A DNA stretch of 64,000 nucleotides from a bacterium (GTDB lineage: Bacteria > Cyanobacteriota > Sericytochromatia > S15B-MN24 > UBA4093). The translations under genes were made by a program, and so were the position numbers. The notes under the pieces were generated by a model. It ran no database searches, had not been told where the DNA came from, and worked only from the letters and a program-made list of their open reading frames with translations. Below, piece after piece: positions 13,649 through 35,114 of the stretch (within the stretch, counting starts at the first letter, position 1; each line of letters opens with the position of its first letter). The stretch lies in assembly GCA_017744355.1 (NCBI GenBank), contig JAGIBK010000003.1, forward strand, positions 54,547-118,546. Reading direction: 5' to 3'.

Positions 13649-13682
13649 ACGAGGCCCGCCATCCTGGGACGGCGGGCCTCGT
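13649..13682. terminator. Hairpin between convergent genes (putative bidirectional terminator)
   Basis: acgaggcccgcc / ggcgggcctcgt 12-bp stem, followed on the plus strand by ttcgtcctgtt. Confidence 0.6.
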
Positions 13683-13704
13683 TTCGTCCTGTTGGGTCCT
13701 GCCG

Positions 13705-14631: not shown

Positions 14632-15465
14632 ATGAGCGACATCCAGCACCCTTTGACCCTCAACGCCCCCCTCTGCACCACTTTCCTCGAGAAGTTCCTC
14701 GTCAACGAGGTCACGAAGGTGGGCTTCAAGCGAGTCGTACTCGGCCTCTCCGGCGGCATCGACTCGGCGCTCGTGGTCTACCTGGCGGTGCGGGCGCTCG
14801 GCCCTGAAGCGGTGAGCGTCATCGCCATGCCCTACAAGTCGAGCAATCCCGAGAGCCTCGCCCACGCGCAGCTCATCGCGGACGACCTGGGCCTCTCGCT
14901 CATGACCGAAGAGATCACCCCGATGGTTGACGCCTTCTACGCGCGCCACCCGGAGGCGAGCGCCCACCGGCGCGGCAACTTCATGGCCCGCCAGCGGATG
15001 TGCGTCCTCTACGACCACTCGGCATTGGTCAATGGCCTGGTGCTCGGCACCTCCAACAAGACCGAGCTCCTCCTGGGCTACGGCACCCAGCACGGCGACC
15101 TGGCCTCGGCCTTGAACCCACTGGGCGACCTCTACAAGACCCAGGTCCGCCAACTCTCGCGTTACGTCGGCGTCCCTGCTCCGGTCATCGACAAGCCGCC
15201 TTCGGCGGACCTGTTCGAAGGGCAGAGCGACGAGGCGGATCTCGGCTTCACCTACGACGAAGTCGACCGCTTGCTCTATCACCTGGTGGACCTGCGCAAG
15301 AGCCGCGAGGAGGTCCTGGCCCTGGGCTTCTCGCCCGAGATGCTCAAGACCGTCGAGCGGCGCATCCGCCTGAACCACTTCAAGCGCCGCCCGCCCATCC
15401 TGCCCAAGATCTCGAACCGCACCATGGACAAGGACTTCCACTACCTCAGGGATTGGGGCGTCTAA
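14632..15465 (+). CDS. nadE: NH3-dependent NAD+ synthetase
   Basis: PP-loop motif GLSGGIDS and NadE-like sequence throughout. Confidence 0.9.
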   Translation: MSDIQHPLTLNAPLCTTFLEKFLVNEVTKVGFKRVVLGLSGGIDSALVVYLAVRALGPEAVSVIAMPYKSSNPESLAHAQLIADDLGLSLMTEEITPMVDAFYARHPEASAHRRGNFMARQRMCVLYDHSALVNGLVLGTSNKTELLLGYGTQHGDLASALNPLGDLYKTQVRQLSRYVGVPAPVIDKPPSADLFEGQSDEADLGFTYDEVDRLLYHLVDLRKSREEVLALGFSPEMLKTVERRIRLNHFKRRPPILPKISNRTMDKDFHYLRDWGV

Positions 15466-20450: not shown

Positions 20451-21890
20451 CTACTCGACCATCACCGGGACCATGGTGGAGTCCACCATGCCGTGGATAG
20501 CCTTCTTGTCCGCCGGTGCCACGGTGGCCAGGATCCCGTGCAGGTGCGCCTGTTCGCCGTCCACGAAGTAGTAGGGACAGAGGCGCACGCGGCCATCGAA
20601 CTGGCGGATCTCGCGCCGGTTGAAGTCGTAGTACCGGCTCTGGACCTTGGCGGGCTTGTGGTACTCCTGCAGCAGGTACGGGGTCTCGGGGAAGCTCGCA
20701 AGCGCCGCCTCGACGCGCGTGGCCCACTCCTCGGAAGGGGTGTCGCTGCCGAAGGTGATGCCCCGGCTGCCCCAGGCGAGCTCCGAGAAGCCCGAGGGCT
20801 TGAGCACGAACTCGCGCTGCTTCTTGGTGGTCGGGATCAAGTCGCGGAAGTCGCTGACCGGGCGTCCCTCGACCGTGAGGCCCGGGATCACCCCGTGCGG
20901 CGGCAGGGGGCGCGCATCCACGATCCAGGTGCGGGGCAAGAGCCGCTCCATGGCATGGAAGCTCTCGGCGCCCAGCTCCTGCTCCCAGTAGCCCTGGAGC
21001 ATGGGGTGGTGGAAGAGGGCGAAGAGCATCTTCTCTTCGAGGAAGGTCTTGAAGGGGGGCGTGACGACGACCTGCTGCTTCTTGGCCGCGTACATCATCA
21101 GCTCGGTCTTGGGCACGTTCTTGAGATCGAACAGCTCGAAGAAACGATAGATGACGTCGAGGCGCTCGGCGTCGAGCCAGAAGGCCTCGTCGGCGTAGCG
21201 CAGCTGCTCGGGACGCACGACCTGGACCCGCAAGAGCCCCGCGGCGTTGAGCGCGTCGGCGACGTGGGCCATCTCGTTCCAGTAGTCGTTCGACTCCTGG
21301 GAGATGACGATGGCGACGAAGGGATCGGCCACCTCGGGCACCTGGGCACGGATCATGCGGGCGAAGCCATGCAGCATGCCGTCGGCGCCGCCCACGGTCT
21401 CGAAGCCGAGCTTGGCGTAGGCCGTCGAGAGGCTCGAGACGAAGCCCTGACCGCCGGGCACCGAGTCGAGCTCGCAGGCGATCGCGCGTCCCTCGTCGGT
21501 GAAGATGAGGTCCGGCCGGATGATCGCCGGCACGAGCTTCTTCTGGCGATTCATGCGGGCGTACTCGATCAGGTGCTCGGGCTTGCCCTGCTCCAGGTAC
21601 TCGGCCACCCAGGGCGCGATCTTGCCCTTGACGCTCTCGTAGTAGAGCTTGTTGGCGGCCTGGTAGAACCGCAGCAGGTGGTTACCCAGGCTCTTGACGT
21701 AGAGGTACGTCTCCTTGGAGATGCAGAAGGGCTCCGGCGCGATGCGCCAGGGGATGTGGCTGTCGGGGTGATGGTCGCGGGTGGTCGATTTGAAGATCGC
21801 CTCCCCCTCGGCCATGCGGTTGAGGCTCAGGCAAGCCTCGACCGGATCCACGTGAGAGGGCTTGAGCGCACAGTTTCCGACAATGGTCAT
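20451..21890 (-). CDS. Conserved hypothetical protein, possibly ATP-grasp / glutathionylspermidine-synthase-like ligase (function uncertain)
   Basis: 479-aa ORF with GC-biased third positions; start 9 nt after the upstream zinc-ribbon gene's stop (translational coupling). Family assignment is a guess from overall composition, not a motif match. Confidence 0.75.
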   Translation of the reverse strand: MTIVGNCALKPSHVDPVEACLSLNRMAEGEAIFKSTTRDHHPDSHIPWRIAPEPFCISKETYLYVKSLGNHLLRFYQAANKLYYESVKGKIAPWVAEYLEQGKPEHLIEYARMNRQKKLVPAIIRPDLIFTDEGRAIACELDSVPGGQGFVSSLSTAYAKLGFETVGGADGMLHGFARMIRAQVPEVADPFVAIVISQESNDYWNEMAHVADALNAAGLLRVQVVRPEQLRYADEAFWLDAERLDVIYRFFELFDLKNVPKTELMMYAAKKQQVVVTPPFKTFLEEKMLFALFHHPMLQGYWEQELGAESFHAMERLLPRTWIVDARPLPPHGVIPGLTVEGRPVSDFRDLIPTTKKQREFVLKPSGFSELAWGSRGITFGSDTPSEEWATRVEAALASFPETPYLLQEYHKPAKVQSRYYDFNRREIRQFDGRVRLCPYYFVDGEQAHLHGILATVAPADKKAIHGMVDSTMVPVMVE

Positions 21891-21899
21891 AAGCTCGGC

Positions 21900-22214
21900 C
21901 TAGTTGTTGCCGGTGGCGCGCGAGACGCCCCAGGCGATGAGGATCACCACCAGTACCAGCACCATGCCGATGCCGAACCAGGAGTCCTTGCCCCCCTCGC
22001 CGTGCTCCCCGTCGCCGAAGTCGCGGTCCTCGATGCCCAGGGCATCCAGGTCATCGGCCTTGAAGCCCTCGGTCGCGGTGGGCGGGGGGATGGTGATGCC
22101 CGTGAACTGAGGCGTCTGAAGGTAGCTGGCCTTGGCCTCGGACACCATCAGGGCCCCGCAGTGCTTGCAGAACTTGGTGTCTTCCTTGTAGCCGCAGCTC
22201 GGACAAGTCATCAT
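21900..22214 (-). CDS. Small zinc-ribbon protein with C-terminal transmembrane helix
   Basis: CPSCGY…CKHCG zinc-ribbon Cys pairs; C-terminal hydrophobic helix WFGIGMVLVLVVILIAWGV; GC-biased third positions. Confidence 0.65.
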   Translation of the reverse strand: MMTCPSCGYKEDTKFCKHCGALMVSEAKASYLQTPQFTGITIPPPTATEGFKADDLDALGIEDRDFGDGEHGEGGKDSWFGIGMVLVLVVILIAWGVSRATGNN

Positions 22215-22328: not shown

Positions 22329-22820
22329 TTAGTGACTTTCGCGCCGTTCGAGGATCACGATGCCCGGCGGCCAGGGGATTCCCGCCGGTTGCGGCGACAG
22401 GATCCGGGCCCCGTCCCCGTCCACCTGGAAGCGCGCGACCCGCTGGAAGGTGCCCCCGCCGCCGTCCTTGACGGTGAGAAAGACCTCGTAGATGCCCGGG
22501 GTACGCGGCGGCAGGTAGGCGCTGTAACTGGTGGCCAGCGAGTCCGAGGCGACCGGCACGCTCTCGGAAGCGACCGATAGCCAGCCTGCGCTGGTGCGCC
22601 AGTTGAAGGCCATCATCCCCACCCCGCTCGCAAGGGCCATGAGTTCGAAGGGGCCGCGCTTCTCCAGGGTGGAGGCAGGGCGCGCCTCAAAACGGACGAT
22701 CAAGGGATTTTGCTCGCTGCGCGGGCCGTAGGCCCCGGTCAAGTGGTCGCAGGCGCTCAACGACGCCACGATCATCGCCCCGGCCACAACCCAGCCCATC
22801 CACTCGCCTGCCTGACGCAT
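22329..22820 (-). CDS. Hypothetical lipoprotein (last gene of the pilus-like locus)
   Basis: ATG at 22820 (GGGAGG upstream) gives MRQAGEWMGWVVAGAMIVASLSAC with a canonical LSAC lipobox. Track ORF extends further 5' without support. Confidence 0.6.
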   Translation of the reverse strand: MRQAGEWMGWVVAGAMIVASLSACDHLTGAYGPRSEQNPLIVRFEARPASTLEKRGPFELMALASGVGMMAFNWRTSAGWLSVASESVPVASDSLATSYSAYLPPRTPGIYEVFLTVKDGGGGTFQRVARFQVDGDGARILSPQPAGIPWPPGIVILERRESH

Positions 22821-22938
22821 GGTGCAGACCTCCCGGGCTGCGCTTATGCAGCCAAGGCTTACGATACCTGCCTTCACGCCCATGCCACAGGCCGGGACCG
22901 ACGAAGTTTCACGCATGCCTCGTGCGATATGACCAAAG

Positions 22939-25437
22939 CTAATTTCTGAGCTTGAGCGTCAACACCAGGCGCTTGATGCCGCGCGGCGCGGTCATTTGAA
23001 GCTCCACCCGGCACGAGCCGGCGGGCAGCGTGGCAGGGAGCCGGGTCGTCACTTGCCAGTCACGTTTGTCCACCCGGCGCAAGGGGATGGGTGGCGATCC
23101 CTCGAAGCGCAGCCAGACCTGACGCGCCGTGGCGATCGCCCGGACCCGCACAGTGACGGGCCGCCCGCGCACGGCGGGGTCGGGGGTGAAGACCACGGGC
23201 GGCGGCGAGTTGTGCGGCGCTTGAGGCTCGGCCGCCGTCTCGAAAAACTCAGCGGACAGGGAGCCGTCGAGCTTGAGCAGGGGGGCCTCTTTCTGGCTCA
23301 CGACGAAGTCCAGGTCGTCGCGTGCGGCCTGCTCTTTCAGAGAAATGGCATGGGCCTGCTCTTCCCAGGTATAGTCGCCGTCCATCGAGGAGCTCGCAAG
23401 GCGTACCACGTAATGGCCCGCCGGCAGGGCCTCGAAGGCGTAGCGACCTTCCGCGTCGGTCCATGTCTCGCGCGCCTCCTCGCCTTCGAGCGCCACGGTG
23501 AGCGACGCCACGCCGCGCCCCTGGCGATCGCGCACGCGGCCCGCGAGGCGGCGCGCGAGCTGGACGTCGAAGCGCAGGTCCAGAAGCTGCTGCCCCTTGG
23601 CCAGGGTAACGGCGCGCACGGTCTGAGCAGGCGCGATCGCAAGCGCCAAAGGCAAGCGATTGGCGTCGAGCGACACGAGGTGAGGGCCCGGCGTGACCTC
23701 GTCGAAGGCAAAGCGCCCATCCGGGGCCACCGTCGCAACCTGCACCCGATCCAGCAGGACCCGCAGCTCGCCTGTGACCGTGCCGGGCGGCAAGAAGACG
23801 CGTCCGCCGAGGCGCGCCGGGCGCTCATCAGGCGTCCTCTCGCCCGGTGGCCCGAAGCGGCTCTCGTAGCGAGCGAGCCAGCGGGCACTCGCCGGCCCAC
23901 CGATGCTCTGTTCGAGCGCCCCCGTCGCGCTGAGCTGCTCGCTCTCGGAGAGCAGGGTGCTCAGATCGAGGCTCAGCCCCACGCGGCTGCTCGGATCGAA
24001 GGGTTCGGTCGCCAGGTGTTCGAGAAAGGCGCCGCTACGGACCTGCACCCGTCGATCCAGGAGCGGCCCGCCCCAGGCGAGGCCGTGCAGGAGCCTGGTC
24101 GGGGCATCCGCGCGAAGCGTCACGTTCTCGTTCCAGTCCAGGGCGCTGCCGAACAGGCCGCTCTCCTGCAAGCCCAGCAGGTGCTGCTGAATGGGAGCAC
24201 CTGAGAAGTGGCTCTGCCACCACTCCCAGCGGGCCCGGCTGCGCTGCGCGAACGGCAGCTGAAAGGTCAGCTCGCTCGCGAGGCGGTCGAAGCGCAGCGC
24301 ATAGGACGTAGAAGCGCTGGTCGTGAGCATGTCGCTCTGCGAGTAGCTCACGTTCGTGCCGGGCCCCTGCCGTGGCTGGTAGGCGAGCCCCACCATGGCA
24401 AAGCCCGATTGCTGGCGCGGCAGGGCCGCATCCCCGGCCAGGTTGAGCATCCCACGCCCCATGGTGGCGTTGGCCTGCCATTCCCCCGAGAGCTCCGCTT
24501 TCAGGGACGCGTTCCAGTTCTCGCGCCCCCCCTCGCGCAGGAAGGCCTGGTAGCGAACCGGCTGGAAGTCGGCCCCCTGGCGCAGGTAGGTACCCTGGAA
24601 GCGCAGGCGATCCCATGGCACCTCGGCCGACCAGCGCGTCCCCCAGTCGGGACGCGCGCCTCCGAGCGCGGCGGCGAGGTCCCCTTCGAGACGCGTCCCG
24701 CCCTCCACGTAGGCTGCCCCGACGCTGGTGAGGCCGCCGCGGATCGCAAGGTCCTCGTCGTCCTGGGCGAGCAGCCTCCCGCGCAAGACGAGGCGATCGG
24801 AGAGGGGCGTCTCCGCCTGGGCGCCGGCGAGGGTGCGGCGGCGCTCGGCCGAGGCGATGGCAGGGCGATCGCGTCCGGCGAAGGCCATCCCCTTCCAGTT
24901 GCGGCCCTGCAGGTGGGCTCCCCCACCGCGGATCGCCAGGTCGTCCATCAAGAGCGCGCCCAGCGAGAGCGCCTCGTCGCCGATCGTCAAAAAGCCACGA
25001 TCGCCCAGGTGGCCGACGAGGCTGAACTCACCGAGTTGCCAGGCCTGGTCCTGCCGGTCGGCGACCGAGCGAAAAGACCAGAGCGTGTCTCCCTGGCTCC
25101 CGCGCAGCGACAAGCCCAGGCGCGACGTGCTCATGCCCTGGCCCGCGTCGCCCCCGTAGCGGCTCGCCCCTTGATGAAGCTGCATTTCGCCCGAGGGCAG
25201 CCAGGGCATGAGGCGCAGGGGGTTGAGCACCCCTTCCGGCAAAGGAGTGGTCGGCACCTTGAGAATGGTTCCCTGGGTCGAAGCCGGTGGTGGCGAGGGT
25301 GCGGCCTTCTTGACGCGCTTGACCACGGGCACCTTGGCCTCGGGCAGCAGGAGCTGTTCGCTCGGCACGGCCCCCCACGCCGCGCCGGCGAAGCCGAGCA
25401 CCCCGATTGCGCATGCCCAGCGGCAAAGCGTACGCAA
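22939..25437 (-). CDS. Large outer-membrane protein, putative pilus usher-like assembly platform (atypical; C-terminal CarboxypepD_reg-like domain)
   Basis: 832 aa with signal peptide; TTG start 3 nt after the chaperone-like gene's stop. Assignment rests on size and gene order (pilin, adhesin, chaperone, this gene), not on a recognised usher motif. Confidence 0.6.
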   Translation of the reverse strand: MRTLCRWACAIGVLGFAGAAWGAVPSEQLLLPEAKVPVVKRVKKAAPSPPPASTQGTILKVPTTPLPEGVLNPLRLMPWLPSGEMQLHQGASRYGGDAGQGMSTSRLGLSLRGSQGDTLWSFRSVADRQDQAWQLGEFSLVGHLGDRGFLTIGDEALSLGALLMDDLAIRGGGAHLQGRNWKGMAFAGRDRPAIASAERRRTLAGAQAETPLSDRLVLRGRLLAQDDEDLAIRGGLTSVGAAYVEGGTRLEGDLAAALGGARPDWGTRWSAEVPWDRLRFQGTYLRQGADFQPVRYQAFLREGGRENWNASLKAELSGEWQANATMGRGMLNLAGDAALPRQQSGFAMVGLAYQPRQGPGTNVSYSQSDMLTTSASTSYALRFDRLASELTFQLPFAQRSRARWEWWQSHFSGAPIQQHLLGLQESGLFGSALDWNENVTLRADAPTRLLHGLAWGGPLLDRRVQVRSGAFLEHLATEPFDPSSRVGLSLDLSTLLSESEQLSATGALEQSIGGPASARWLARYESRFGPPGERTPDERPARLGGRVFLPPGTVTGELRVLLDRVQVATVAPDGRFAFDEVTPGPHLVSLDANRLPLALAIAPAQTVRAVTLAKGQQLLDLRFDVQLARRLAGRVRDRQGRGVASLTVALEGEEARETWTDAEGRYAFEALPAGHYVVRLASSSMDGDYTWEEQAHAISLKEQAARDDLDFVVSQKEAPLLKLDGSLSAEFFETAAEPQAPHNSPPPVVFTPDPAVRGRPVTVRVRAIATARQVWLRFEGSPPIPLRRVDKRDWQVTTRLPATLPAGSCRVELQMTAPRGIKRLVLTLKLRN

Positions 25438-25440
25438 AGG

Positions 25441-26250
25441 CTATCGTTCCAGGAAGGTCTCCGCCTCCAGGGCCTCCTCGCCGCCATAGTCGAGGGAGAC
25501 CTGGGCCTGGTAGCGTCCCGGGGCGAGGTCCTTCTCAAGGGGAAGCTGAAGCAGGCGCTTGCTTTCGCGGATGAGGGCCACGTCCTCGATCTTGAGCTCC
25601 GCGACGGTCGTGCCGTCCGGTCGACTCAGCTTGACCACGCCCGAGCACCGCACATGGACCTTGCCGGGATTCTCCAGCACGAGGCCGACCCGCGCAGGGG
25701 CCTTGCCCTTAGGCGGTAGGTAGGCGACGCCCCCGATCGTGGCCTGCCGCTCGAACGGCGGAACCGCCACGTACAGGGTGTCCCCCAGGCGCTGGCTGAA
25801 GAGGATCATGGAGCGACCCTTCTTGGTGGGCACCTGAGGCGGTGTCGTCTCGAAGAAGAGCATGCCCTGGTACTCGCCCGGCTCGACGCCCGCTGGCACC
25901 GCCACGTTGACCCGGACGGCCTGCTGCTGGTTGGGCAGCAGCACGAACTGCGCCGGCGAGAAGGTGACGAAGCGCTGCGCGGAGTACGCAGACTTGCCCG
26001 GCAGCAAGAAGAGCATCTCCCCCGACGGGTGAAGGCCCCAGTCGGAGTAGTAGGCGCGGACCCGCAGGGCGTCTTTACCCGAGTTGGCGACGGTGACCGA
26101 GAAGGCCTGATTCTCGCCAGGCGTCACGACCAGCTCCTGGCGCGCGGGAAAGATCGACAGCGAGGAGAGCCCAGCCTTGGCGGGGGATGCCCAGGCGAGA
26201 CTCAGCAGGCAGAGGGCCAGGAAGAGGAGGGGGCGAGCTTGGTGCTGCAC
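25441..26250 (-). CDS. Periplasmic pilus-assembly chaperone-like protein (PapD-like fold predicted)
   Basis: GTG start at 26250 gives signal peptide (V)QHQARPLLFLALCLLSLAWASPAKA. Beta-rich pattern IFPARQELVVTPGENQAFSVTVANSG…RVRAYYSDW resembles chaperone N-domain signatures. The track's 57 extra N-terminal residues are Arg-rich and unlikely. Confidence 0.65.
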   Translation of the reverse strand: MQHQARPLLFLALCLLSLAWASPAKAGLSSLSIFPARQELVVTPGENQAFSVTVANSGKDALRVRAYYSDWGLHPSGEMLFLLPGKSAYSAQRFVTFSPAQFVLLPNQQQAVRVNVAVPAGVEPGEYQGMLFFETTPPQVPTKKGRSMILFSQRLGDTLYVAVPPFERQATIGGVAYLPPKGKAPARVGLVLENPGKVHVRCSGVVKLSRPDGTTVAELKIEDVALIRESKRLLQLPLEKDLAPGRYQAQVSLDYGGEEALEAETFLER

Positions 26251-26264
26251 GGAAGAGGCGCCTT

Positions 26265-27776
26265 TCAATACCCGGCCGCCGTGTAGGTGACGGTCGAGAC
26301 GTACGTATCGGAGGTGTAGGCCCAGCTGGGCAGGAACCGGTAGTCGAAGGTCAGGATCCCGCCGTCGGTGCGGCCGTCGAGCGTGGCGAGGCTCAAGGCC
26401 TGCTGGCTGAAGGCGTCCCAAACGCCGTTGCCCCGGCTCAGCTGCACCTGCGCCCTCACCGCCTCTCCCCCGACCGGCGGCCGCGAGGGGCTCGCGCGAA
26501 AGAGGAAGCTCGAAAGGGGGAGGGTCTCGCGCTCCGAGGTGGGCGCGGTCGCCGCGACCGAGAGGGTGGTTTGGCCATAGTTGCTCTTGAGCGTGACCAC
26601 CGCCGCGCCATCGGCCTGATCGGTGCCGGGGGCCTCCGGGTCGGAGACCAGCTGGATGGGCCCCGTGTTGACGGTGAGCGTCAAGCGAGGGGGCACCGTC
26701 ACCGCAACGGTCGTGGGGGTCAGGACCGCGGGCGGTGCGGCGCCGCTCGCGAAAGCGGCGGTATAGGTCAACTGCGACGTGTAAGTGGCCGGGGCGTACG
26801 CCCAGTCGCTGTCCACCTGAAAGCTCAGATCGAAGGGCGTCTCGGCGGAAGGCCCCGAGAACGAGGCCACCGTCTGGTCCGTTTCGCTCAGGGCACGGGG
26901 CGCGGCCGAGCCGAGACGGAAGGTATAGGCGCCGAAGGGGATGGTGTTGATGCCGTCCGAGAGGGGCCTTGCCCGGATGGCGAGCGTCGTCGCCTCCCCT
27001 GGCCGGGCGTTGCTCTTGAGCACCGCCCTCACGTTGGAGGTGGCGGGCGAAGCCGCCAGCGGATCGGCCGTCAACGTGAAGTGACTCGGCGGGACCGAGA
27101 GGGCCACGCGAGGCGGCACGGTAAGCGCGATCGCGAGGCTGGTCGGCAACACCGGCCCATCCTCGAGGCGGTATCCGTAGCTGAGGCCTGCCGAATAGGT
27201 GCCCCAGGGCTGCAGCCAGCTGTTCTTCAGCTTGAGCTGCGTGTTGTAATACCGGGCACCCTTCTTGCTCTTGCTCAGCCCGAACTGGCGCGTCGCGGTC
27301 GCAAGGGCCTGGTTATTGGGGTTGCTCCGCGATCGCGTGGCCGTCCAGACGGACTTGGAGTCGGTCCCGGCCCCGTCCCAGACCAGGTTGGCGAGCGGCA
27401 TGCTGCCGAACGAGGATAAAAGGTCGCCCGACGCGCCGAGGAAGGCCCCGACCTCGTCCTTCTTGGGGGTCAGAAACCAGAGCGGATCCTGGAGCAGGCC
27501 GCCGAGATCCAGGTCCAGATCGAGCGAAAGACCATCGTCGGGGCCGTTCTGCGAATAGCTGAGTTCGTACTGGATACCGGGGGAGAGGATCGAGACGGGC
27601 TCCGTATCAGGGTTGGAGGCCTCCATGACCCCTACCAGGGAGACGGCACCGCCAAGGGGCGCCCCCGTGGCGGCGTTTTTCAACGACGTCACGGGCGGCG
27701 CCACCTTGGAATCAGCGATCGCCTCGGTTGCCAGTCCCAGCCATGTCGCCACGACCAGGAGGGACAGCCGACGCAT
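26265..27776 (-). CDS. Secreted multi-domain pilus subunit / tip-adhesin-like protein with two SCPU-like modules
   Basis: Signal peptide. Two modules ending in the motif YTSQLTYTAA / YTSDTYVSTVTYTAA, shared with the adjacent 170-aa pilin. Start 2 nt after the pilin stop. Confidence 0.7.
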   Translation of the reverse strand: MRRLSLLVVATWLGLATEAIADSKVAPPVTSLKNAATGAPLGGAVSLVGVMEASNPDTEPVSILSPGIQYELSYSQNGPDDGLSLDLDLDLGGLLQDPLWFLTPKKDEVGAFLGASGDLLSSFGSMPLANLVWDGAGTDSKSVWTATRSRSNPNNQALATATRQFGLSKSKKGARYYNTQLKLKNSWLQPWGTYSAGLSYGYRLEDGPVLPTSLAIALTVPPRVALSVPPSHFTLTADPLAASPATSNVRAVLKSNARPGEATTLAIRARPLSDGINTIPFGAYTFRLGSAAPRALSETDQTVASFSGPSAETPFDLSFQVDSDWAYAPATYTSQLTYTAAFASGAAPPAVLTPTTVAVTVPPRLTLTVNTGPIQLVSDPEAPGTDQADGAAVVTLKSNYGQTTLSVAATAPTSERETLPLSSFLFRASPSRPPVGGEAVRAQVQLSRGNGVWDAFSQQALSLATLDGRTDGGILTFDYRFLPSWAYTSDTYVSTVTYTAAGY

Positions 27777-27778
27777 GC

Positions 27779-28291
27779 TTAGGGGGCAGCGACGGTGTAG
27801 GTCACGGTCGAGGTGTAGTCGCCCGCGTCATAGTCGAAGCTGTTGCCGAGCAGATAGGTGACGTTGACGTGGGCGCCGTTCTTGCCGGTCTTCGTGTTGA
27901 GGTCCTTCACCGAAGTCGCCGTGGTGTCCGAGAAGGTGACGGCGGTGTTGGAGCTATCCACCCGGTACTTGAAGTTGGAAAGGGGAATCGACGAGCCGGC
28001 CGCGGTGCCCGCGCCCTGCGGGGCGGTGGCGGTCACGCTGACCTTGGCGCCGCCCTTGTAGTTGCTGAACACGGTGAGGCCCGAGGCGAGGCTCGAAGCG
28101 GTGCCGTCGGCCGCGTCCGGATCGACGGTCAGGGTGCCGGCGAGGTTGTCCATCACGATGGAGAGACGCGCCGGAACGCTGATGTTGACGGTGTGGGTGC
28201 CGTTGGTGGCAGCCTGCGCCACGGGGGCCATGGCAACGAAAAGGCCGAGCGCGAGGGCGCCGGCGCTAAACTGGGTGATTGACTTCATCAT
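27779..28291 (-). CDS. SCPU (spore coat protein U)/Csu-type pilin-like secreted subunit
   Basis: Signal peptide MMKSITQFSAGALALGLFVAMAPVAQA; ~145-aa Thr/Ser/Val-rich mature part ending YTSTVTYTVAAP. First gene after an AT-richer promoter region. Confidence 0.72.
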   Translation of the reverse strand: MMKSITQFSAGALALGLFVAMAPVAQAATNGTHTVNISVPARLSIVMDNLAGTLTVDPDAADGTASSLASGLTVFSNYKGGAKVSVTATAPQGAGTAAGSSIPLSNFKYRVDSSNTAVTFSDTTATSVKDLNTKTGKNGAHVNVTYLLGNSFDYDAGDYTSTVTYTVAAP

Positions 28292-28478
28292 TCGAAGGGG
28301 GCCTTTCTGAACAAGAGGGCTTCGCCACGATGCAACATGGCAACGCGCGAGCGGAAAAACTTCAGCTATCGGAGTTATTCCCTTCGCCTAATGCATTCTT
28401 ACGAAAGACTTCATATAGAAATAATAAAGACTTAGTGAAGGTCAAGCACCACGCGCCTTATCGCTTCACGTCCGTCTT

Positions 28479-28850
28479 CTAACGCAAGGGCCACCAGCGT
28501 CTGGGGATCGCGCTACGGTGCTCGGCCACCCATCGATAGAGCCGATCTTCCCCCCACCGCACGGGAGGCACGTGATAGAGCAGGGCCAGGCAGCCCCAGA
28601 CGCCGCCGAGGGCGCGGAAAGTTCGATTGATCGCCGCTGCCCCTGCGTAGCGTCGTCCCTGAGGCTCGATCGCCCACGCCTCGCGCGCGGCTTGCTCACG
28701 CGTCAAGCCCAGCTCCTCGAGCAGGCCAGGTTCCTGAAAGGGAACGGCCTGGATGCGGCCCGCGCGATCGCGGGCCCTCACCCAGGCCACGGTATCCCGG
28801 CACAAGCCGCATTCCCCATCGTAGACGAGGATCAAGCGCTGCGCGTCCAC
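28479..28850 (-). CDS. Thiol-disulfide oxidoreductase, DCC family (DUF393)
   Basis: Motif VYDGECGLC near the N-terminus; GTG start at 28850 closely following the upstream gene's stop. Confidence 0.82.
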   Translation of the reverse strand: MDAQRLILVYDGECGLCRDTVAWVRARDRAGRIQAVPFQEPGLLEELGLTREQAAREAWAIEPQGRRYAGAAAINRTFRALGGVWGCLALLYHVPPVRWGEDRLYRWVAEHRSAIPRRWWPLR

Positions 28851-29449: not shown

Positions 29450-31114
29450 TCAGATGTGATAGCCGCGGAAGCGCTCGGTCTTGGCCTGCGGGCGCAGCAC
29501 GGCCGCGTCCTGGACCCGGGCGGCCTCCTGGGCCACGCCGAAGTAGTCGAGCCACTCTTGCGGGGCGTCGATGGTCTCGCCGCCGTGGCTCGTCAGGCGC
29601 GATCGCACCTGGCACAGCACCGGAGTATTGATCGCAACCCCCGCCACCACCACTTGCCCCTTGGTCAGGGCCGGCAGCTCGTCCAGCAGGTCGCGCCCCG
29701 CGCCCTCGACCGAGCTTGCGATGGTCTGCTGGTCGATGGGGTTCACGATCTTCATGATGAACTGGGTCATGCACTGGGAGAGCACGTCGCTGTCCAGCTT
29801 GCCCGGTCGCTGGGTGATGAGGCCGACCCCCACGCCGAACTTGCGGCCCTCGGCGAGGATCGTCTTGAGGATCGGGGTGCTGACGACTGTGGCCCCGGCC
29901 GGTGCGAAGCGGTGGGCCTCTTCGAGCAGCACGAAGACCGGGTAAGGCACGTAGGTCTCGCCGTCGTGGACCTTGCCGTTCTTGGTGTCCATCCGCGCGC
30001 GGTTGATGCGCCTGAGCAGGGTCGAGACGATCACCTGCTGCATGTCCTGGTCGATCTCGTTGAGCTGGATGACCGTGACCTGGCCGGGGGCGAACAGCTC
30101 GGGCAAAGGCAGGTGGTCCCGGTCGTGGAAGATCCGCGATCGCGCGAAGCGGTCCTCGAGGCGCCAGCGGATGCCCTCGATGGTGCTCGCGTTGGAGGAC
30201 GGATCGTCCTCGGCCCCCTCGGTGCGCATGGCATCCAGCGCGTTGAAGAGGTCCTGGAGGCCCCACAGGTGGCCGTCACCCTTGCGGCCCCGGACCCGGT
30301 CGAAGGCCTTGCCGAGGAAGGCGTTCATCTTCTCGCTCATCATGGGCAGCAGCGATCGCACGTCAGTCTCGGTGAGGCTCGAGAAGCGGATCCGCACCTG
30401 ATCGTGCGGGATGATCCGCACCCGAGGCCGGTAGCCGCCCTGCGAGAAGGCCGGATGGTTCTCGAACTCGCGGAAGGTGTGGTACTCGCCGTGGGGGTCG
30501 ATGACGAGCACCGCCGCGCGGTTGTAGGGGCGCAGCAGCTCCTCGATGAGCACACCCGCCGTGTAGCTCTTGCCGGAGCCGGTGGAGGCCAGAATGGCCA
30601 GGTGGGTCGAGACCAGGTTCTTGACGTCCAGCACCACGGGCACCTCGCCGGCCGCTCGGGTCAAGAGCGAGCCGAGGTGGGCCGAGCCTGGCGCCCCTTC
30701 GGTCTTGGGGCTCAAGACCTCGGTCAAGAAGGCGCTACTGGCCAGGTGGACCCGCGCACCCGGATCGGGCATCATCCGCGGATTGACGAAGCCCTTGAAG
30801 CGCGGATCGAAGTAGCCCGCGATCGAGACCGTCACCTCGTAGAGCTCAGGGGTGGCCGCGTCGAAGCCGATCAGCTCGGCCACCTCGGAAGGCGGGATGT
30901 GGGGATCCGCGAGGAAGGCGTCGGGCAGGGTGCGAACGATGGCCTTCTCGGTGATCTTGCCGAGGATCAGGCGCTCGGTGCCGTCCACCGACACCGGGTA
31001 GTAGACGAACTCGCCCACCTTGGTGCGGGCGTTGTCCGGGGTGATGAAGCGGTACTCGTGGGCGCTCTCGCCCGGGCCCTTGACGGTGCCGATCAACAGG
31101 TCTTGGCTCATCAC
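29450..31114 (-). CDS. herA: HerA-like ATPase/helicase (FtsK-HerA superfamily, DUF87-type)
   Basis: Walker A ILASTGSGKSYT, Walker B VFVLLEEAHRF, LITQRP motif, N-terminal barrel-like region. GTG/ATG start overlaps the upstream gene's TGA (GTGATGA). Confidence 0.88.
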   Translation of the reverse strand: MMSQDLLIGTVKGPGESAHEYRFITPDNARTKVGEFVYYPVSVDGTERLILGKITEKAIVRTLPDAFLADPHIPPSEVAELIGFDAATPELYEVTVSIAGYFDPRFKGFVNPRMMPDPGARVHLASSAFLTEVLSPKTEGAPGSAHLGSLLTRAAGEVPVVLDVKNLVSTHLAILASTGSGKSYTAGVLIEELLRPYNRAAVLVIDPHGEYHTFREFENHPAFSQGGYRPRVRIIPHDQVRIRFSSLTETDVRSLLPMMSEKMNAFLGKAFDRVRGRKGDGHLWGLQDLFNALDAMRTEGAEDDPSSNASTIEGIRWRLEDRFARSRIFHDRDHLPLPELFAPGQVTVIQLNEIDQDMQQVIVSTLLRRINRARMDTKNGKVHDGETYVPYPVFVLLEEAHRFAPAGATVVSTPILKTILAEGRKFGVGVGLITQRPGKLDSDVLSQCMTQFIMKIVNPIDQQTIASSVEGAGRDLLDELPALTKGQVVVAGVAINTPVLCQVRSRLTSHGGETIDAPQEWLDYFGVAQEAARVQDAAVLRPQAKTERFRGYHI

Positions 31115-31686
31115 TTCACCGCCTGGATGGTTCGCTGCCAGTTGAGCGCGTTGCGCAGCACCCCGAGCCGTGCGCGATCCTCAGGGCAGAGGGAGTTGAG
31201 GCGATCGAGGACCGCAAGGAGCAAGCTAAGGCTCGCAGGGCCTCCGTTCGCCTGCACCAGGGGCAGGTAGCGCAGCTGGAGGCGCCCCGTCTCGTCCCGG
31301 TGAAAGCGAACAAAGTCCTCGTCCGGCAGGGTCTCGACCTCGGAGTGGACCGGGATCACCTCGCCCGGCACCTCGTGGACCCCGTGCAGAGCGCCCAGGC
31401 GCCCGAGCAACAGGACGCTCACGAGCGTTGCCTGCTCGTCGATGAGGTCCGGCGTGAAGACCCGGATCTCTTGGGGCGAGTTGCTCAGGCGGGGACCGAA
31501 GTGGCCGAAGTCGGGGTTCTGGAGCTGGGAGTCGAAGACGATGCCGATCGCATCCCCCGCCAGGCGCACGAAGCGGCCGAAGGCGTAAGCGCCAGGCTCG
31601 GGAGGCTCGGGGATCTCACCCGGATGGTAGATCTGGCAGACGTAGTCCAGGTGCGATCGCGACGAGACGATCTTTCCGATGCGCAA
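31111..31686 (-). CDS. Hypothetical protein encoded between nurA and herA
   Basis: TTG start at 31686 with GGAGGGAAGG RBS; stop overlaps herA start; GC-biased third positions; no recognisable motif. Confidence 0.6.
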   Translation of the reverse strand: MRIGKIVSSRSHLDYVCQIYHPGEIPEPPEPGAYAFGRFVRLAGDAIGIVFDSQLQNPDFGHFGPRLSNSPQEIRVFTPDLIDEQATLVSVLLLGRLGALHGVHEVPGEVIPVHSEVETLPDEDFVRFHRDETGRLQLRYLPLVQANGGPASLSLLLAVLDRLNSLCPEDRARLGVLRNALNWQRTIQAVK

Positions 31687-31743
31687 GGCCTTCCCTCCAG
31701 TCGAAGCAACCTTTCGATTCTAGAACAAACGATTGATGTCCGG

Positions 31744-32901
31744 CTAGCGGCGCCGGAGCTTGGAGAGGGCCTTCTTCGAGAAGCGCAGCGGCACGCCGCG
31801 CACGTCGAGGAACTCCTGGACGGTGCGGTAGAAGCCGTCGCGATCGGCCGCCGAGAGCACCGCCGTCGCATCCGCCGCCGCCAGCGTGTAGGGGTAGCCG
31901 CCGCCTGCGATCGCATCGGCGCGCACCACGTCCAGCACCTCGTCCAAGAGGCCCGCCTCCTGGATCCAGAGGGGGTACTCCAGGCGCGCGGGCGGCGCGT
32001 CGGCATTGGTCTGCAGGTAGCAGAAGCCGATGCGGCGGGCCCAGTCTCCATAGTTGTCGAGGATCCCCTCGCGCGCGCAGATGGCGGTCGGGGTGCGATC
32101 GCCCCACTCCAGGCGACCCGCAAGCAGCGCGGCGTCGCTGACCCCGCCGGTCCCCGAGAGGCCCCGCCAGCTGGCGAGCATGGTCGCGAGGTCGTGGGCG
32201 TAAGAGGTGTCCACGTAAGCGATGAGCGGCACCCGCGCGGCCTCGGCGTCAGCCAAGAGCCCTCTCACGAGCTCCACGTACCGAAGTGAATAGGCGTCCT
32301 GCTTGCGCTTCTCAGCAAAGGAGACCACCAGGCTGCCGTCCAGGTAGACGATGCGCCCGGGCTCACCCGGCGCGGCCAGGTAGCGCCTGAGGGCGGCCAC
32401 CTCCAGCTCGAAGCGCGCGAGGTCCACCTTGCGCTTGGGCGGGCCCACCTCGTCCTCCTTGAGGTCGTCGGGGCCCAGCACTCGCACGTCCACGTCCTTG
32501 CGGTAGCCTGGGGCCTCGGCGGCATGCAGGTTCTCGAACCACCCCACCTGGACCAGGGCCACCGGCAGCGAAAAGCGCCGATCGGGCTCGATCTGGCTGC
32601 CGTCCGCCGCGAAGGTCGGCCGGCCCGCGAGCTTATTGAAAGCCCAGGCCCTCGCCGCGGAGTGGTCGTTCCATGAAAGGCCGAAAGGGATCCGCGCACC
32701 CCGGTCCCACTCTTCGGTGGGCAGAGCGCCGGGCGCATCGAAAGTGGCAAGGGCCGCCCCGAGCGACGCGGCATCGGCCTCGGAAAGCGCATCGAGGGCC
32801 GCGACGAGCGCTTCGAGCCGTCCGGTCAGGGCGGCGTCGTAGGCGTCGAACGCGCTCGCGCAGGCTTCCAGGGCCCCCAAGAGGCGATCGCGGTAGAGCA
32901 T
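31744..32901 (-). CDS. nurA: NurA-domain 5'-3' nuclease
   Basis: NurA-like N-terminal catalytic motif (…FAADGSQIEPD…); ATG 32901 lies 2 nt after the patatin stop (TGAgcATG); position upstream of herA as in known nurA-herA pairs. Confidence 0.8.
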   Translation of the reverse strand: MLYRDRLLGALEACASAFDAYDAALTGRLEALVAALDALSEADAASLGAALATFDAPGALPTEEWDRGARIPFGLSWNDHSAARAWAFNKLAGRPTFAADGSQIEPDRRFSLPVALVQVGWFENLHAAEAPGYRKDVDVRVLGPDDLKEDEVGPPKRKVDLARFELEVAALRRYLAAPGEPGRIVYLDGSLVVSFAEKRKQDAYSLRYVELVRGLLADAEAARVPLIAYVDTSYAHDLATMLASWRGLSGTGGVSDAALLAGRLEWGDRTPTAICAREGILDNYGDWARRIGFCYLQTNADAPPARLEYPLWIQEAGLLDEVLDVVRADAIAGGGYPYTLAAADATAVLSAADRDGFYRTVQEFLDVRGVPLRFSKKALSKLRRR

Positions 32902-32903
32902 GC

Positions 32904-34172
32904 TCAGGCGTCGAGGGCGTGGTCGAACTCGCGCGCCATGATGAGAGCCTCCTCGGGGATGTCGGCGACACCCAGGTCGGTGGTGACCCAGGCCTCGCGC
33001 CCCAGGGCGAGGTTGGCGTCGTGATAGCCCTGCTGAATGTAGGTCTCGCGCAGCTCAGGGTGGAAGAACCCCTCGAAGACGTCACCCGGCAAGGACGGCC
33101 GGGGGAAGATGGGGATCAAGCGCACGATCCGCCGCCCCAACAGATCGTCGAGGCTCTTGTAGCCTGCCGCCAGGGCCAGGGTCTCGTTGAAGGTGTTGGC
33201 GAGGACATTGCCGTTCTTGCCGCGCTTGAGCAGCTGGTGAAGGCGAGCGAGCTTGTCGTTCTCCTTGCGGACCTTGCGGTAGTTCTGGACGACGAAGCGG
33301 CCCGCGAGCATCGAGAAGACCCGGCCCAGGACCCCGTAGAGCGTGTCGGGCTCGTGCTCGGGTCGATCGACCACCGTCACGCCCGACACCACCAGCACCG
33401 TGTCGATGTCAGGATCCATGCTGATCACGCGGCCGATGGGCGCGTTGTCCATCAGGCCGCCGTCGAACAGCATCGCGCCGCTCGCCGCGTCGCGGGTGGG
33501 CGGGAAGAGGAAGGGAAAGGAGCTCGACGCCTCGATCATCCGCGTCAGGCGGGGCTGGACGTTCGCCTCCCATTCCTCGTGGGTGGTGTCGGCGCTCCAG
33601 ACGTAGTCCTCGTAGACCGAGTAGCGCGCAGCAAGCTCCATGGCGTCGCTCAAGGAGGTGGAGCCCATCAGGTCGGTGGCGACCAGGCTCAGCTTGACGG
33701 GCCGCTTGATGACCTGCGGAAGGCGGACGTAGTCCTCCATGATCTGCCGGACGAAGTGGTGGGAGATGAGCGAGGCGAAGTCGCCACGGATCAACTGCTC
33801 GAAGGCGAAGAGGGAGTCGAAGCCGATGCGGGGGCGGTACTGCCGGCGCAGGGGGTCGACCCCGATGCGGTTGAAGAGGGTGCGCAGGTTGCGGCGCTCC
33901 AATTCGTCGCCGTCCATCCGGCCGAAGCCGTGGTAGAGGTTCTGCGCGTTGACCGTCTCGCGCCAGTGGTACACCAGCTCCGACTCGACCGCCTGGCCCG
34001 TGAACTGACCGGCGGCAATGAGCTGGGCCGCGAAGGTCCCGTTGATGGCCCCCGCCGAGATGCCCACGATGGCGTCGGGGTAGATCTGGTGCTCAGCGAT
34101 GGCCTTGAGGACGCCCGCTTCGTACGCCCCCTTGGCGACCCCGCCGCACAGTACCAAGCCTACCTTGCCCAT
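32904..34172 (-). CDS. Patatin-like phospholipase
   Basis: Oxyanion-hole motif GGVAKGAYEAG, lipase serine motif GISAG, catalytic Asp motif DGGLMDN. RBS GGAGGG before ATG 34172; first gene of the operon. Confidence 0.88.
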   Translation of the reverse strand: MGKVGLVLCGGVAKGAYEAGVLKAIAEHQIYPDAIVGISAGAINGTFAAQLIAAGQFTGQAVESELVYHWRETVNAQNLYHGFGRMDGDELERRNLRTLFNRIGVDPLRRQYRPRIGFDSLFAFEQLIRGDFASLISHHFVRQIMEDYVRLPQVIKRPVKLSLVATDLMGSTSLSDAMELAARYSVYEDYVWSADTTHEEWEANVQPRLTRMIEASSSFPFLFPPTRDAASGAMLFDGGLMDNAPIGRVISMDPDIDTVLVVSGVTVVDRPEHEPDTLYGVLGRVFSMLAGRFVVQNYRKVRKENDKLARLHQLLKRGKNGNVLANTFNETLALAAGYKSLDDLLGRRIVRLIPIFPRPSLPGDVFEGFFHPELRETYIQQGYHDANLALGREAWVTTDLGVADIPEEALIMAREFDHALDA

Positions 34173-34262: not shown

Positions 34263-34490
34263 TCCGAAAAAATGGCCAAAATGCTGAGGGCAAGTAGCCA
34301 AATATCAGGATGACAAGGTCACCACCTGGCTTTCAGGCCCAAGCTCGCCCCCCGAAAAAGCGCGAGAGCACGCGTTGTAGAAGGATGGACCAGCCCCTAG
34401 CATCGACGTCGGCGCACAGGGGGACGAGCTTCATTGCTCGGGGCTCCCCAACACCGCCGGATGGCCCTCGGGGCCGGGAGGTTGCGAACG
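34263..34490 (+). repeat. Conserved 5' leader, copy A, upstream of the first RGG/aromatic-rich secreted protein gene
   Basis: Shares long near-identical blocks with 35209..35424 (CCG(A/G)AAAAATGGCCAAA(A/G)TGCTGAGGG…, a ~90-nt core …AGAGCACGCGTTGT…CAGCCCCTAGCATCGAC(G/C)TCGGCGCACA…GGGGG…CGAG, and GGAGGTTGCGAACGATGAAACGGGT). Confidence 0.8.
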
Positions 34491-35114
34491 ATGAAACGGG
34501 TGAAGATGTCGACTTGGATCATCGGCGGCTTAGCCGTTACGGCGACAGCAGCTTGCTCGACCGTGGTTCCGAACACCCCCACGGTCAGCGAAGCTCCGAA
34601 GCCCTTGGCGCAAGTCGCCCCCGATCGCACGATCCTCGCTGAGATCCAGATGCCCAACGAGGATATCTTGAAGTCGCTGCCCAAGGAGATCAGCGAAGCC
34701 GATGCCAAGAAACTGCTCGTTACGCTCCCCATAGATAAGGTTGAGGCTCCTCTGACGATGGGCGACGAGCCGTCGCGCACCACCCTGCAACGGGGCTTCC
34801 GCGGTGGCTTCCGTGGCGGCTTCGGCCGGGGCTTCGGGTTCGGCCGCGGCTTTGGTCGCGGATTCGGCTTCGGCCGCGGCTTCGGCCTCGGCTTCGGCGG
34901 CCTCGGCTTCAGCGGCCTCGGTTGGGGCGGCTGGGGCGGCTGGGGGCCACTCTGGTACCCCTACCAAAACTGGTGGTTCCCCTACACTTGGTCCGGCGCC
35001 GCCTGGACGCCCTACTACTGGCCGACCACCTGGGGCGGCTACAACTACCCCTTCGCGTGGGGCGCGCGCGGACGTTGGTGGCCCTCCGTCTGGCGTTCCC
35101 GCTGGATGTGGTAA
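34491..35114 (+). CDS. Secreted protein (possible lipoprotein) with RGG/FG glycine-arginine repeats and Trp/Tyr-rich C-terminal tail, paralog 1
   Basis: ATG 34491 with GGGAGG RBS; signal peptide MKRVKMSTWIIGGLAVTATAAC; GFRGGFRGGFGRGFGFGRGFG… then WYPYQNWWFPYTW…; GC-biased third positions. Confidence 0.72.
   Translation: MKRVKMSTWIIGGLAVTATAACSTVVPNTPTVSEAPKPLAQVAPDRTILAEIQMPNEDILKSLPKEISEADAKKLLVTLPIDKVEAPLTMGDEPSRTTLQRGFRGGFRGGFGRGFGFGRGFGRGFGFGRGFGLGFGGLGFSGLGWGGWGGWGPLWYPYQNWWFPYTWSGAAWTPYYWPTTWGGYNYPFAWGARGRWWPSVWRSRWMW

Follow-up and report, generated by a model that had tools for sequence, protein, structure and literature searches.

Two described systems come closest to the operon analyzed here. 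The WxL clusters of Gram-positive bacteria combine two WxL proteins, a small and a large one, with a WxLIP and a further small protein that is anchored, and AlphaFold2 (AF2) predicts that one strand of WxLIP is inserted parallel into WxL, completing the WxL sandwich (PMC10599100). The definition and the catalogues of chaperone-usher pili in Gram-negative bacteria both rest on usher and PapD families, and therefore a system lacking the two signatures escapes every census. A candidate for such a system lies in a stretch of 64,000 nucleotides from an uncultured bacterium of the Sericytochromatia (contig JAGIBK010000003.1 of assembly GCA_017744355.1, positions 54,547 to 118,546), which we call the window. 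Five genes run there on the minus strand from 28291 to 22329, encoding two secreted subunit-like proteins of 170 and 503 amino acids (aa), a chaperone-like protein, an 832-aa secreted protein in the position of an usher and a lipoprotein. We lean towards reading this operon as a chaperone-usher-like system for the assembly of a surface fibre or adhesin, in which a chaperone of WxLIP type would serve subunits that are pilin-like and possibly WxL-like, together with a novel partner in the outer membrane.

All five open reading frames (ORFs) are present where a first-pass annotation of this DNA had placed them. Going 5' to 3' along the operon, the intergenic gaps are 2, 14, 3 and 118 nt, so that the spacing of 2-3 nt claimed for the first four genes holds except before the chaperone-like gene, where it is 14 nt. 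This gene most likely starts at the GTG at 26250, which yields a protein of 269 aa and matches the NCBI record J7643_09225. N-terminal signal sequences are found on all five proteins (these, like the lipobox of the lipoprotein, were judged by eye), with cleavage sites APVAQA|ATNG in the 170-aa protein, TEAIA|DSK in the 503-aa protein, ASPAKA|GLSS in the chaperone-like protein and AAWGA|VPSE in the 832-aa protein. When all five proteins were scanned against Pfam and NCBIfam, pilus families were absent from the results, and PDB searches with single sequences gave no match. The window also encodes two TolC-like outer-membrane factors (OEPs) and an AcrB pump, and therefore the organism has an outer membrane.

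Components of the operon

The chaperone-like protein (25441..26250, minus strand) is a secreted protein of two beta-sandwiches, the family ties of which are clearer for its relatives than for the protein alone. By itself it matches PF06030 (WxLIP_PGBD, DUF916) at E=0.027, over nearly the whole profile and with 15 bits versus a gathering threshold of 27.3, a score that its homologues in two related loci, L001 and L003, do exceed. An exhaustive profile search built from seven relatives retrieved 15,770 cluster representatives at E≤1e-3, of which 5,976 reach E≤1e-10 and 327 reach E≤1e-30. When a 71-member profile of this family was compared with proteins of known structure, it matched the solved EfmWxLIP1 of Enterococcus faecium (9i25_C, 9i1y_A) at E=5e-13, over both domains and profile positions 33-263; among fimbrial chaperones it matched EcpB (5dfk_A) at E=2.2e-5 and FaeE at 0.17. 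Scanned singly against Pfam, 33 of the 71 members match WxLIP_PGBD, seven match PapD_N (best 1.5e-4) and one matches PF11797 (DUF3324). Several members also match Cep192, ASH or MSP domains, which we take to belong to the PapD-like superfamily, and there are weak matches to many generic immunoglobulin (Ig)-like domains such as fn3_5 and NPCBM_assoc. The window protein itself has no match to PapD_N (PF00345) or PapD_C (PF02753) at E≤1. Hence, the earlier proposal of a PapD-like chaperone stands as a remote family link, carried by EcpB and by the seven members matching PapD_N, whereas the protein in question groups with WxLIP (DUF916 plus DUF3324).

Among the best 149 representatives of the family, 133 have an N-terminal signal-like segment and only eight have the C-terminal hydrophobic anchor typical of WxLIP; most of them are therefore soluble. 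The window protein ends in EAETFLER, without a hydrophobic tail, and to judge from these comparisons of sequence it is part of a branch of the WxLIP family that is soluble, presumably located in the periplasm, and has the two-domain architecture without the membrane anchor. The alignment of the family with FimC by hhalign is weak (E=0.01, probability 4%), but it places R37 (in the numbering of the 269-aa protein; alignment position 41, basic in 43 of the 71 members) opposite the arginine equivalent to R8 of FimC, and R154 (alignment position 158, Arg in 56/71) in the strand that is aligned to the K112-bearing SRIKLYY strand of FimC. One homologue, P0005, carries the JGI name 'P pilus assembly chaperone PapD'. 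The strand insertion predicted for WxLIP and WxL has the geometry of donor-strand complementation by PapD-type chaperones, a comparison that the authors of the prediction (PMC10599100) do not draw.

The family is found in other forms, too. About 40 of the same 149 representatives are 450-620 aa long and mostly have two matched stretches, corresponding to tandem-duplicated chaperone-like units, and P0015, with 4,832 aa and 30 matched stretches, indicates that the family also occurs as repeats inside giant proteins. A plasmid labelled Klebsiella pneumoniae (CP069367.1, 101758-102474) carries a copy of E. faecium WxLIP1 with 74.6% identity, which is unexpected for a Gram-positive surface protein and may be due to wrong labelling or contamination of the record, or else to a transfer.

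Upstream of the chaperone-like gene lie the genes for a single-module secreted subunit of 170 aa (27779..28291), the candidate major fibre subunit, and for a multi-module secreted subunit of 503 aa (26265..27776), the candidate tip or adhesin. The latter has two clear subunit modules, at aa 206-341 and 346-503, with hidden Markov model (HMM) domain E-values of 1e-64 and 1e-66, and all three modules of the window are clear paralogues (1e-63 to 1e-67). As had been noticed from the sequence, the three share a C-terminal motif: YTSTVTYTVAAP at 27817-27782, YTSQLTYTAA at 26783-26754 and YVSTVTYTAAGY at 26303-26268. In every case it reads Y-T-S-x-V/L-T-Y-T and lies two to five residues from the end of the module. 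Since the modules are paralogous and the motif recurs at the subunit C-termini of seven other loci, these motifs are not due to chance. Besides this C-terminal strand, the modules have in common two alternating N-terminal strands around V-P-(P/A)-R, a turn with the pattern L-x-x-D-P and a strand with the pattern P-L-x-x-F-x-(F/Y)-R; the mature 170-aa protein, for instance, opens with the alternating strand THTVNISVPARLSIV and closes with YTSTVTYTVAAP. The N-terminal domain of the 503-aa protein (aa 22-200) ends in the related motif YSAGLSYGY, and its region 124-200 aligns weakly but collinearly with the C-terminal half of a 12-sequence subunit profile (independent E-value 5e-4), so that the first 180 or so residues may form a third, diverged module. 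The whole protein is 91% identical to a relative from a compost metagenome that has the same gene order.

To which family do these subunits belong? They have no sequence match in Pfam, NCBIfam or the PDB, and a search of PDB sequences with the subunit profile gave no pilin. SCPU (PF05229), the type suggested at first, and DUF4402 found no match at E≤0.1-1 among the two window proteins and 16 subunits of related loci, and the same set gave none to Fimbrial (PF00419). A template-free AF2 model of the mature 170-aa protein, based on an alignment of the three window paralogues only, is all-beta and of low confidence, with a predicted local distance difference test score (pLDDT) of 59.8, a predicted template modelling score (pTM) of 0.53 and residues 1-16 as its least confident part. 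The best structural matches of this model are almost all chaperone-usher pilins: the Foldseek hits include CfaB (E=4.6e-4, template modelling score, TM, 0.55), FimA, CS17 (TM 0.60), the pilin domain of PapG, FimG, PapE and PapH, and the closest structures are CsuA/B, the pilin domain of FimH, CfaB, CS17 and CupE. The model thus lends moderate support to a pilin-like Ig fold for the subunits, the incompleteness of which we infer.

The 832-aa protein (22939..25437) opens with a signal peptide and a Pro-rich linker. Next come a central region without an assigned fold, some 465 residues long (aa 76-540), and a pair of CarboxypepD_reg-like beta-sandwiches at aa 541-627 and 630-715; after another Pro-rich linker, the protein closes with a third beta-sandwich (aa 746-832). 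The CarboxypepD_reg-like domain described earlier is confirmed by a match of residues 631-683 to PF13620 (E=2.9e-15), and SdrD_B is also matched (E=3.2e-7). An usher in the sense of family membership it is not, given that Usher (PF00577), PapC_N (PF13954) and PapC_C (PF13953) find no match in it even at E≤1. Its homologues in L001, L002, L003, L007, L009 and L010, scanned with hmmscan at E≤0.01-1, show only CarboxypepD_reg, SdrD_B and similar sandwiches and no usher domains. Comparison of the central regions with FimD by phmmer and hhalign was not significant, and a seven-sequence profile of the central region found zero matches at E≤10 among all PDB sequences. AF2, run on a 3-sequence alignment, modelled the C-terminal domains with a pLDDT of about 75-85, and Foldseek returned generic tandem-Ig matches only.

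The central region may nevertheless be an outer-membrane barrel, as its topology, size and position and the need for an exit route would suggest. Behind the signal peptide there is no hydrophobic helix (maximum KD19 1.38), and the beta-type amphipathic periodicity of aa 76-540, taken as a beta/alpha hydrophobic-moment ratio (0.64, z=4.3), compares with that of the FimD barrel (0.66, z=3.8). Read by eye, the low-GC homologues in L001, L003 and L007 look like outer-membrane barrels of about 24-26 strands, and in the proteins of the window and P0159, L002 and L003 the last strand of the central region, directly ahead of the linker, terminates in an aromatic residue. A counter of strands with alternating hydrophobicity was dropped, as it did not tell FimD from shuffled sequence. 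Searches with the 832-aa protein retrieved only two homologues, the compost relative (91% identical, with the same upstream genes) and P0159 (40% identical); the latter, a protein of 1,149 aa, is extended at its C-terminus by a part with faint Pfam LysM matches. If these LysM repeats are real and bind peptidoglycan, the C-terminal end would lie in the periplasm. The large proteins of Deinococcus have two extra N-terminal Ig-like domains (NPCBM_assoc, Cep192_D3, HYDIN/VesB), which produce a sandwich-central-sandwich layout as in ushers, together with weak matches to choice-of-anchor and S-layer models.

The gene trio in other lineages and its interpretation

One or more subunits, a WxLIP-like protein and a CarboxypepD_reg/SdrD_B protein of 750-1,058 aa constitute a trio, the genes of which are adjacent and co-oriented in the window and in six further loci. 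Outside the window the trio was found in Acidobacteriota, Eremiobacterota, Deferrimicrobium, two Deinococcus plasmids and one metagenome contig, and it extends overall to at least five named phyla, on chromosomal contigs as well as plasmids and with a gene order that is sometimes different. A metagenome-assembled genome (MAG) of Aminicenantes (L001) has three subunits, a chaperone-like protein of 401 aa and a large protein of 750 aa, and a Deferrimicrobium MAG (L003) shares this arrangement. In a Baltobacteraceae MAG (L002), a large protein of 1,029 aa is followed by a subunit, the chaperone-like protein and two more subunits, and a JGI metagenome contig (L007) has five tandem subunits, the chaperone-like protein and a large protein of 835 aa. 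Plasmid 2 of Deinococcus deserti VCD115 (DEIDE_RS15110-15125) encodes a 164-aa subunit, a 256-aa chaperone-like protein, an 839-aa 'carboxypeptidase regulatory-like domain-containing protein' (WP_083764299.1) and a 118-aa subunit, and a plasmid of D. psychrotolerans has all three components together.

In the partial relatives L004 and L005, the chaperone-like gene still adjoins the gene for the large protein, and a protein with the architecture of the 832-aa one adjoins the chaperone homologue in every related locus with readable neighbours. Contig L007 was retrieved by means of the CarboxypepD_reg domain of its large protein alone and has the chaperone gene directly upstream (E=4.8e-50); it therefore provides an independent confirmation of the linkage. 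A related strand stands at the C-terminus of each of the 21 subunit modules that were aligned, for example YTWTVTYTITTT, SWLVTYTLTAN, AVITYTVATN, KVITVTYVLADE, YSATLTWTISAS and YNATVTFTISAS. As to the reach of these searches, word-index searches for homologues gave only 7, 1 and 2 relatives from a poorly sampled lineage, a metagenome scan with the 832-aa alignment returned the compost relative and L007, and chaperone alignments of broader scope proved too heterogeneous for scanning loci.

The five tandem subunit paralogues of L007 (1473-4719) lie upstream of its chaperone-like gene, and three of them end in (F/W)TISAS with variable preceding residues. Downstream (8429-15445) the same contig encodes a 2,339-aa Ig-repeat protein, which contains no subunit domain and was thereby ruled out as a subunit carrier. 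In D. deserti (L009, 8019-8789), the chaperone homologue WP_012695199.1 is named 'FimB/Mfa2 family fimbrial subunit' in RefSeq by the Prokaryotic Genome Annotation Pipeline (PGAP); the name appears to trace to a marginal 58-residue match to Pfam Mfa2 (21.7 bits versus a cut-off of 21.2) and is probably a misannotation. The proteins of the trio are otherwise annotated as hypothetical.

In functional terms, these observations raise a question: How would such a trio work? On balance, and with a confidence that only just leans in its favour, we regard the locus as the diderm counterpart of the Gram-positive WxL clusters, forming a non-canonical system of chaperone-usher type. The two subunit proteins would be exported by Sec, and in the periplasm each subunit would form an Ig-like sandwich in which the groove beside the C-terminal Y-T-x-x-V-T-Y-T strand is filled by a strand from the soluble WxLIP/PapD-like protein. 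The candidate for the donated strand lies around SMILFSQRLGDTLYVAV and would run parallel to the C-terminal strand of the subunit, the C-terminus of which would probably be held by the conserved basic residues R37 and R154. Loaded complexes might then dock on the periplasmic beta-sandwiches of the 832-aa protein, the central region of which would be the outer-membrane barrel. At this protein, the N-terminal alternating strand of a further subunit, such as THTVNISV, would take the place of the chaperone strand and the chain would leave the cell, with the multi-module 503-aa protein acting as tip or adhesin on the surface.

Several points weigh against this model. The central region of the 832-aa protein has no match in Pfam, NCBIfam or PDB sequences that links it to ushers or to any outer-membrane barrel, AF2 gives a pLDDT below 50 for aa 1-538, and hhalign and phmmer detect no homology among the central regions from different lineages. 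The amphipathic periodicity is positive for the window and Deinococcus proteins, not for those of L001, L002 and L003 or for P0159, and it cannot separate a barrel from a sandwich. The link of the chaperone-like family to PapD is remote and does not show as a PapD profile match in the window protein alone; the pLDDT of the subunit model is low, and Ig-like folds match one another easily. In the literature, moreover, WxLIP figures as a partner that stays with WxL at the surface, not as a chaperone that binds transiently, and polymerization is a step that we infer.

The main alternative to the assembly model is that the locus encodes a diderm counterpart of the WxL surface complex that makes no polymer. 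The WxLIP-like protein would then be a permanent partner completing the fold of the subunit, the 832-aa protein a scaffold bound to the outer membrane or peptidoglycan, and the role of the complex adhesion or polysaccharide binding. The strongest homology found is indeed that with WxLIP, the contents of the clusters run parallel (small and large subunit, WxLIP-like protein, small lipoprotein), and the P0159 extension with its faint LysM matches would suit a peptidoglycan-bound scaffold. The subunits, too, have motifs resembling both of those that characterize WxL domains. The C-terminal WxL motif (YTTTIVWNLSEGP, YSTTITWNLVEGP) aligns in register with YTSTVTYTVAAP and in subunit L007a takes the form Y-x-x-x-L-T-W-T-I. 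The first motif, GNWTLTAK in WxL, has resembling forms in several diderm subunits (AWTLTC, NWQLIV, RTWTLTVG), this nW-x-L-t motif being present in the subunits of L001, L003 and L007 and not in those of the window. The sole Pfam match of any subunit at E≤1 is that of the C-terminal 59 residues of L007a to WxL (PF13731), sub-threshold at E=0.047; the window subunits have no PF13731 match. In hhalign, 21 subunits aligned with eight WxL domains at E=0.048 and a probability of 1.1%, collinear through both motifs and with the three motif blocks in the same order. The similarity of the subunits to WxL was not significant with either four or eight WxL sequences, and in Pfam the WxL match stays below threshold or is missing, which counts against the complex without polymer; the homology is a lead, not a demonstrated one. 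A PDB search with a real WxL protein found no WxL chain. This alternative is, in addition, at odds with the absence of the WxLIP membrane anchor in the window and in most close family members, with the tandem near-identical subunit genes of L007, L001 and L003, which are typical of fibres, with a subunit model that best matches polymerizing pilins, and with a lipoprotein that is not conserved. Altogether we consider it rather unlikely.

It appears quite improbable that the operon holds merely unrelated or loosely related secreted beta-sandwich proteins, for instance of the envelope, an S-layer or a glycan-binding system, the pilus-like features of which would be generic to Ig-like folds. Most of the evidence is, admittedly, remote or drawn from low-confidence models, and the weak matches of the chaperone family to generic Ig-like domains and of the Deinococcus large proteins to choice-of-anchor and S-layer models are what such an explanation would predict. 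However, a loose set of proteins fits poorly with a trio content that is kept across phyla and replicons, with the spacing of 2-14 nt in the window and with the conservation of the C-terminal strand motif across the 21 aligned modules.

Finally, if the locus genuinely belonged to the archaic chaperone-usher pili (sigma clade, Csu/SCPU type), as the first-pass annotation proposed, and had diverged beyond the reach of sequence profiles, it would have the expected order of subunit, chaperone and usher position and the remote signal of EcpB and PapD_N, but this reading is very improbable, because SCPU, DUF4402, PapD_N, PapD_C, Usher, PapC_N and PapC_C all fail to match the window proteins and their homologues in six related loci (E≤0.1-1), the match of the chaperone family to WxLIP (5e-13) is much stronger than that to any fimbrial chaperone (2e-5), and the usher-position protein has CarboxypepD_reg/SdrD_B domains and no similarity to FimD or any PDB chain. 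What endures of that proposal is its functional logic, that is, secreted subunits with a shared C-terminal strand, a two-Ig-domain protein and a large secreted protein in tight linkage, whereas the family assignments proposed with it are not supported. Nor do the results amount to the refutation that the first-pass annotation had described, since the family of the chaperone is related to PapD-like chaperones, the 832-aa protein has no assignment elsewhere and the predicted structure of the subunit is Ig-like.

Returning to the assembly model, a broader extension of it can be put forward more tentatively, at somewhat less than an even chance: a third kind of donor-strand pathway may be widespread in diderms (Deinococcota, Acidobacteriota, Eremiobacterota, Deferrimicrobium and the window lineage), in which soluble WxLIP-type chaperones would pass WxL-like or pilin-like subunits to an outer-membrane protein different from PapC/FimD. 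In that case the WxL clusters of Gram-positives and the chaperone-usher pili of Gram-negatives would be the two ends of one ancient family, and WxLIP would be a chaperone homologue, not only a wall anchor.

Upstream region, lipoprotein and neighbouring genes

The operon is preceded by a non-coding region (28292..28478) that might harbour its promoter or a regulator-binding site. This region of 187 bp is AT-richer than its surroundings, as previously reported, with 48.1% GC versus 67.3% in the window, a value within the lowest 0.75% of 187-bp windows. The direct repeat AAAGACTT is likewise present twice as described, at 28404-28411 and 28426-28433, 22 bp apart; it has 3 copies in the window versus 0.41 expected, a number reached in 2/100 shuffles. 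The related 11-mer GAAAAACTTCA at 28354-28364 is a third copy of the upstream repeat, so that the region contains three related copies of TGAAG(T/C)(C/T)TTTC on the minus strand. A scan of the region for the sigma-70 consensus found no promoter there. The third exact copy of the 8-mer, AAGTCTTT, is located at 46643-46650, on the opposite strand and just upstream of an ORF starting at 46664. Directly upstream of the AT-rich region ends a gene for a DCC1-like thiol-disulfide oxidoreductase (28479-28850, minus strand; PF04134, 1.1e-23).

At the other end, the 163-aa lipoprotein with lipobox LSA|C (22329..22820) is encoded 118 nt downstream of the 832-aa gene, most likely from the ATG at 22820, which is preceded by a GGGAGG ribosome-binding site. 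Its C-terminal part reads by eye as an Ig/PKD-like domain, and Pfam and NCBIfam scans gave no family match. It is conserved neither downstream of the homologous gene in L004 nor in other loci, and for this reason we rejected it as a core component; its membership of the system is uncertain. Just beyond it (20451-22214, minus strand) lie two genes, one for a 479-aa protein without Pfam match and one for a 104-aa protein whose N-terminal part contains a zinc ribbon and whose C-terminal part contains a hydrophobic segment. Since they are preceded by a sigma-70-like site at 22312-22284, these two genes probably form a separate transcription unit.

Further upstream, a co-oriented run of four genes (29450-34172, minus strand) includes a HerA/DUF87 ATPase (Pfam 5.8e-45; PADLOC HerA 8e-49), proteins of 191 and 385 aa without a family, and a fourth protein with a patatin-like N-terminus that weakly matches PADLOC phospholipase effector models (E=1e-5); the run may represent a HerA-associated defence module. 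On the plus strand, two tandem paralogous small ORFs (34434-35114 and 35416-36072) have nearly identical N-termini, LRTMKRV(K/N)MSTWI, and look like duplicated lipoproteins, the second having a lipobox-like AAGC.

Comparison with known systems

The class of mechanism proposed here, with strand complementation, a periplasmic chaperone and an outer-membrane platform, is known; the component families and their tie to the Gram-positive WxL clusters are not. A full-text literature search found no paper linking DUF916, WxLIP or WxL to ushers, outer membranes, Gram-negatives or donor strands beyond PMC10599100. Were the assembly model correct, thousands of unannotated operons of environmental and extremophile bacteria would encode surface fibres or adhesins, the chaperone-like family having about 15,800 representatives at E≤1e-3. 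The WxL/WxLIP clusters involved in virulence and colonization in enterococci, listeriae and lactobacilli would gain a mechanistic model, that of strand complementation by a PapD-like partner, and the origin of the chaperone-usher pathway would become open to study across the divide between monoderms and diderms. As a cultured and genetically tractable organism, D. deserti VCD115 with its plasmid 2 makes the hypothesis directly testable.

Among known pili, type V pili (FimA/Mfa of Bacteroidia) have in common with our locus only the PGAP name of the D. deserti chaperone homologue. In contrast to them, the window subunits have AXA signal peptides instead of lipoboxes and match no FimA/Mfa profile, and with the name resting on the marginal Mfa2 match, a type V pilus was rejected. 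TasA of Bacillus, archaeal bundling pili and Pyrodictium cannulae are not known to have a dedicated periplasmic chaperone gene or an outer-membrane partner; unlike these chaperone-free donor-strand fibres, the trio loci keep both partner genes next to the subunits.

The likeness to chaperone-usher pili, be they archaic (Csu, CupE) or alternative (CFA/I, ECP), is much more extensive. It comprises the order of subunit(s), a periplasmic two-Ig-domain protein and a secreted protein of about 830 aa, a second, multi-domain subunit in the position of the tip adhesin, a subunit model nearest to CsuA/B, the FimH pilin domain, CfaB, CS17 and CupE, the remote family link to EcpB, FaeE and PapD_N, and candidate equivalents of the anchoring residues R8 and K112 in the chaperone-like protein. 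Conversely, the window proteins lie outside the Usher, PapC_N, PapC_C, PapD_N, PapD_C, Fimbrial and SCPU families; the protein in usher position has no recognizable N-terminal domain in its window version, CarboxypepD_reg/SdrD_B sandwiches replace the usher C-terminal domains, and a barrel and a plug would be conjectural in it.

For the WxL clusters, we took as reference the csc clusters of Lactiplantibacillus and the Enterococcus loci A-C, with WxLIP defined by DUF916/PF06030 plus DUF3324/PF11797, and fetched clusters from Enterococcus, Bacillus, Lactiplantibacillus, Lactococcus and Melissococcus plasmids. These clusters belong to monoderms, whereas the host of the window has an outer membrane; their WxLIP has a C-terminal membrane helix that is missing from the WxLIP-like protein of the window, and the window subunits and their relatives stay below the Pfam threshold for WxL. 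No LPXTG protein is encoded at the window locus, which has a lipoprotein instead, and the large CarboxypepD_reg protein, always adjacent in the trio loci, is absent from the six annotated Gram-positive clusters that we inspected. Set against these differences, the homology of the chaperone-like protein with WxLIP spans both Ig-like domains, the window has its own small and large subunit, WxLIP-like protein and small lipoprotein, and the C-terminal Y-x-x-x-V/L-T-Y/W/F-T-V/I/L strand of the subunits is in register with the second WxL motif.

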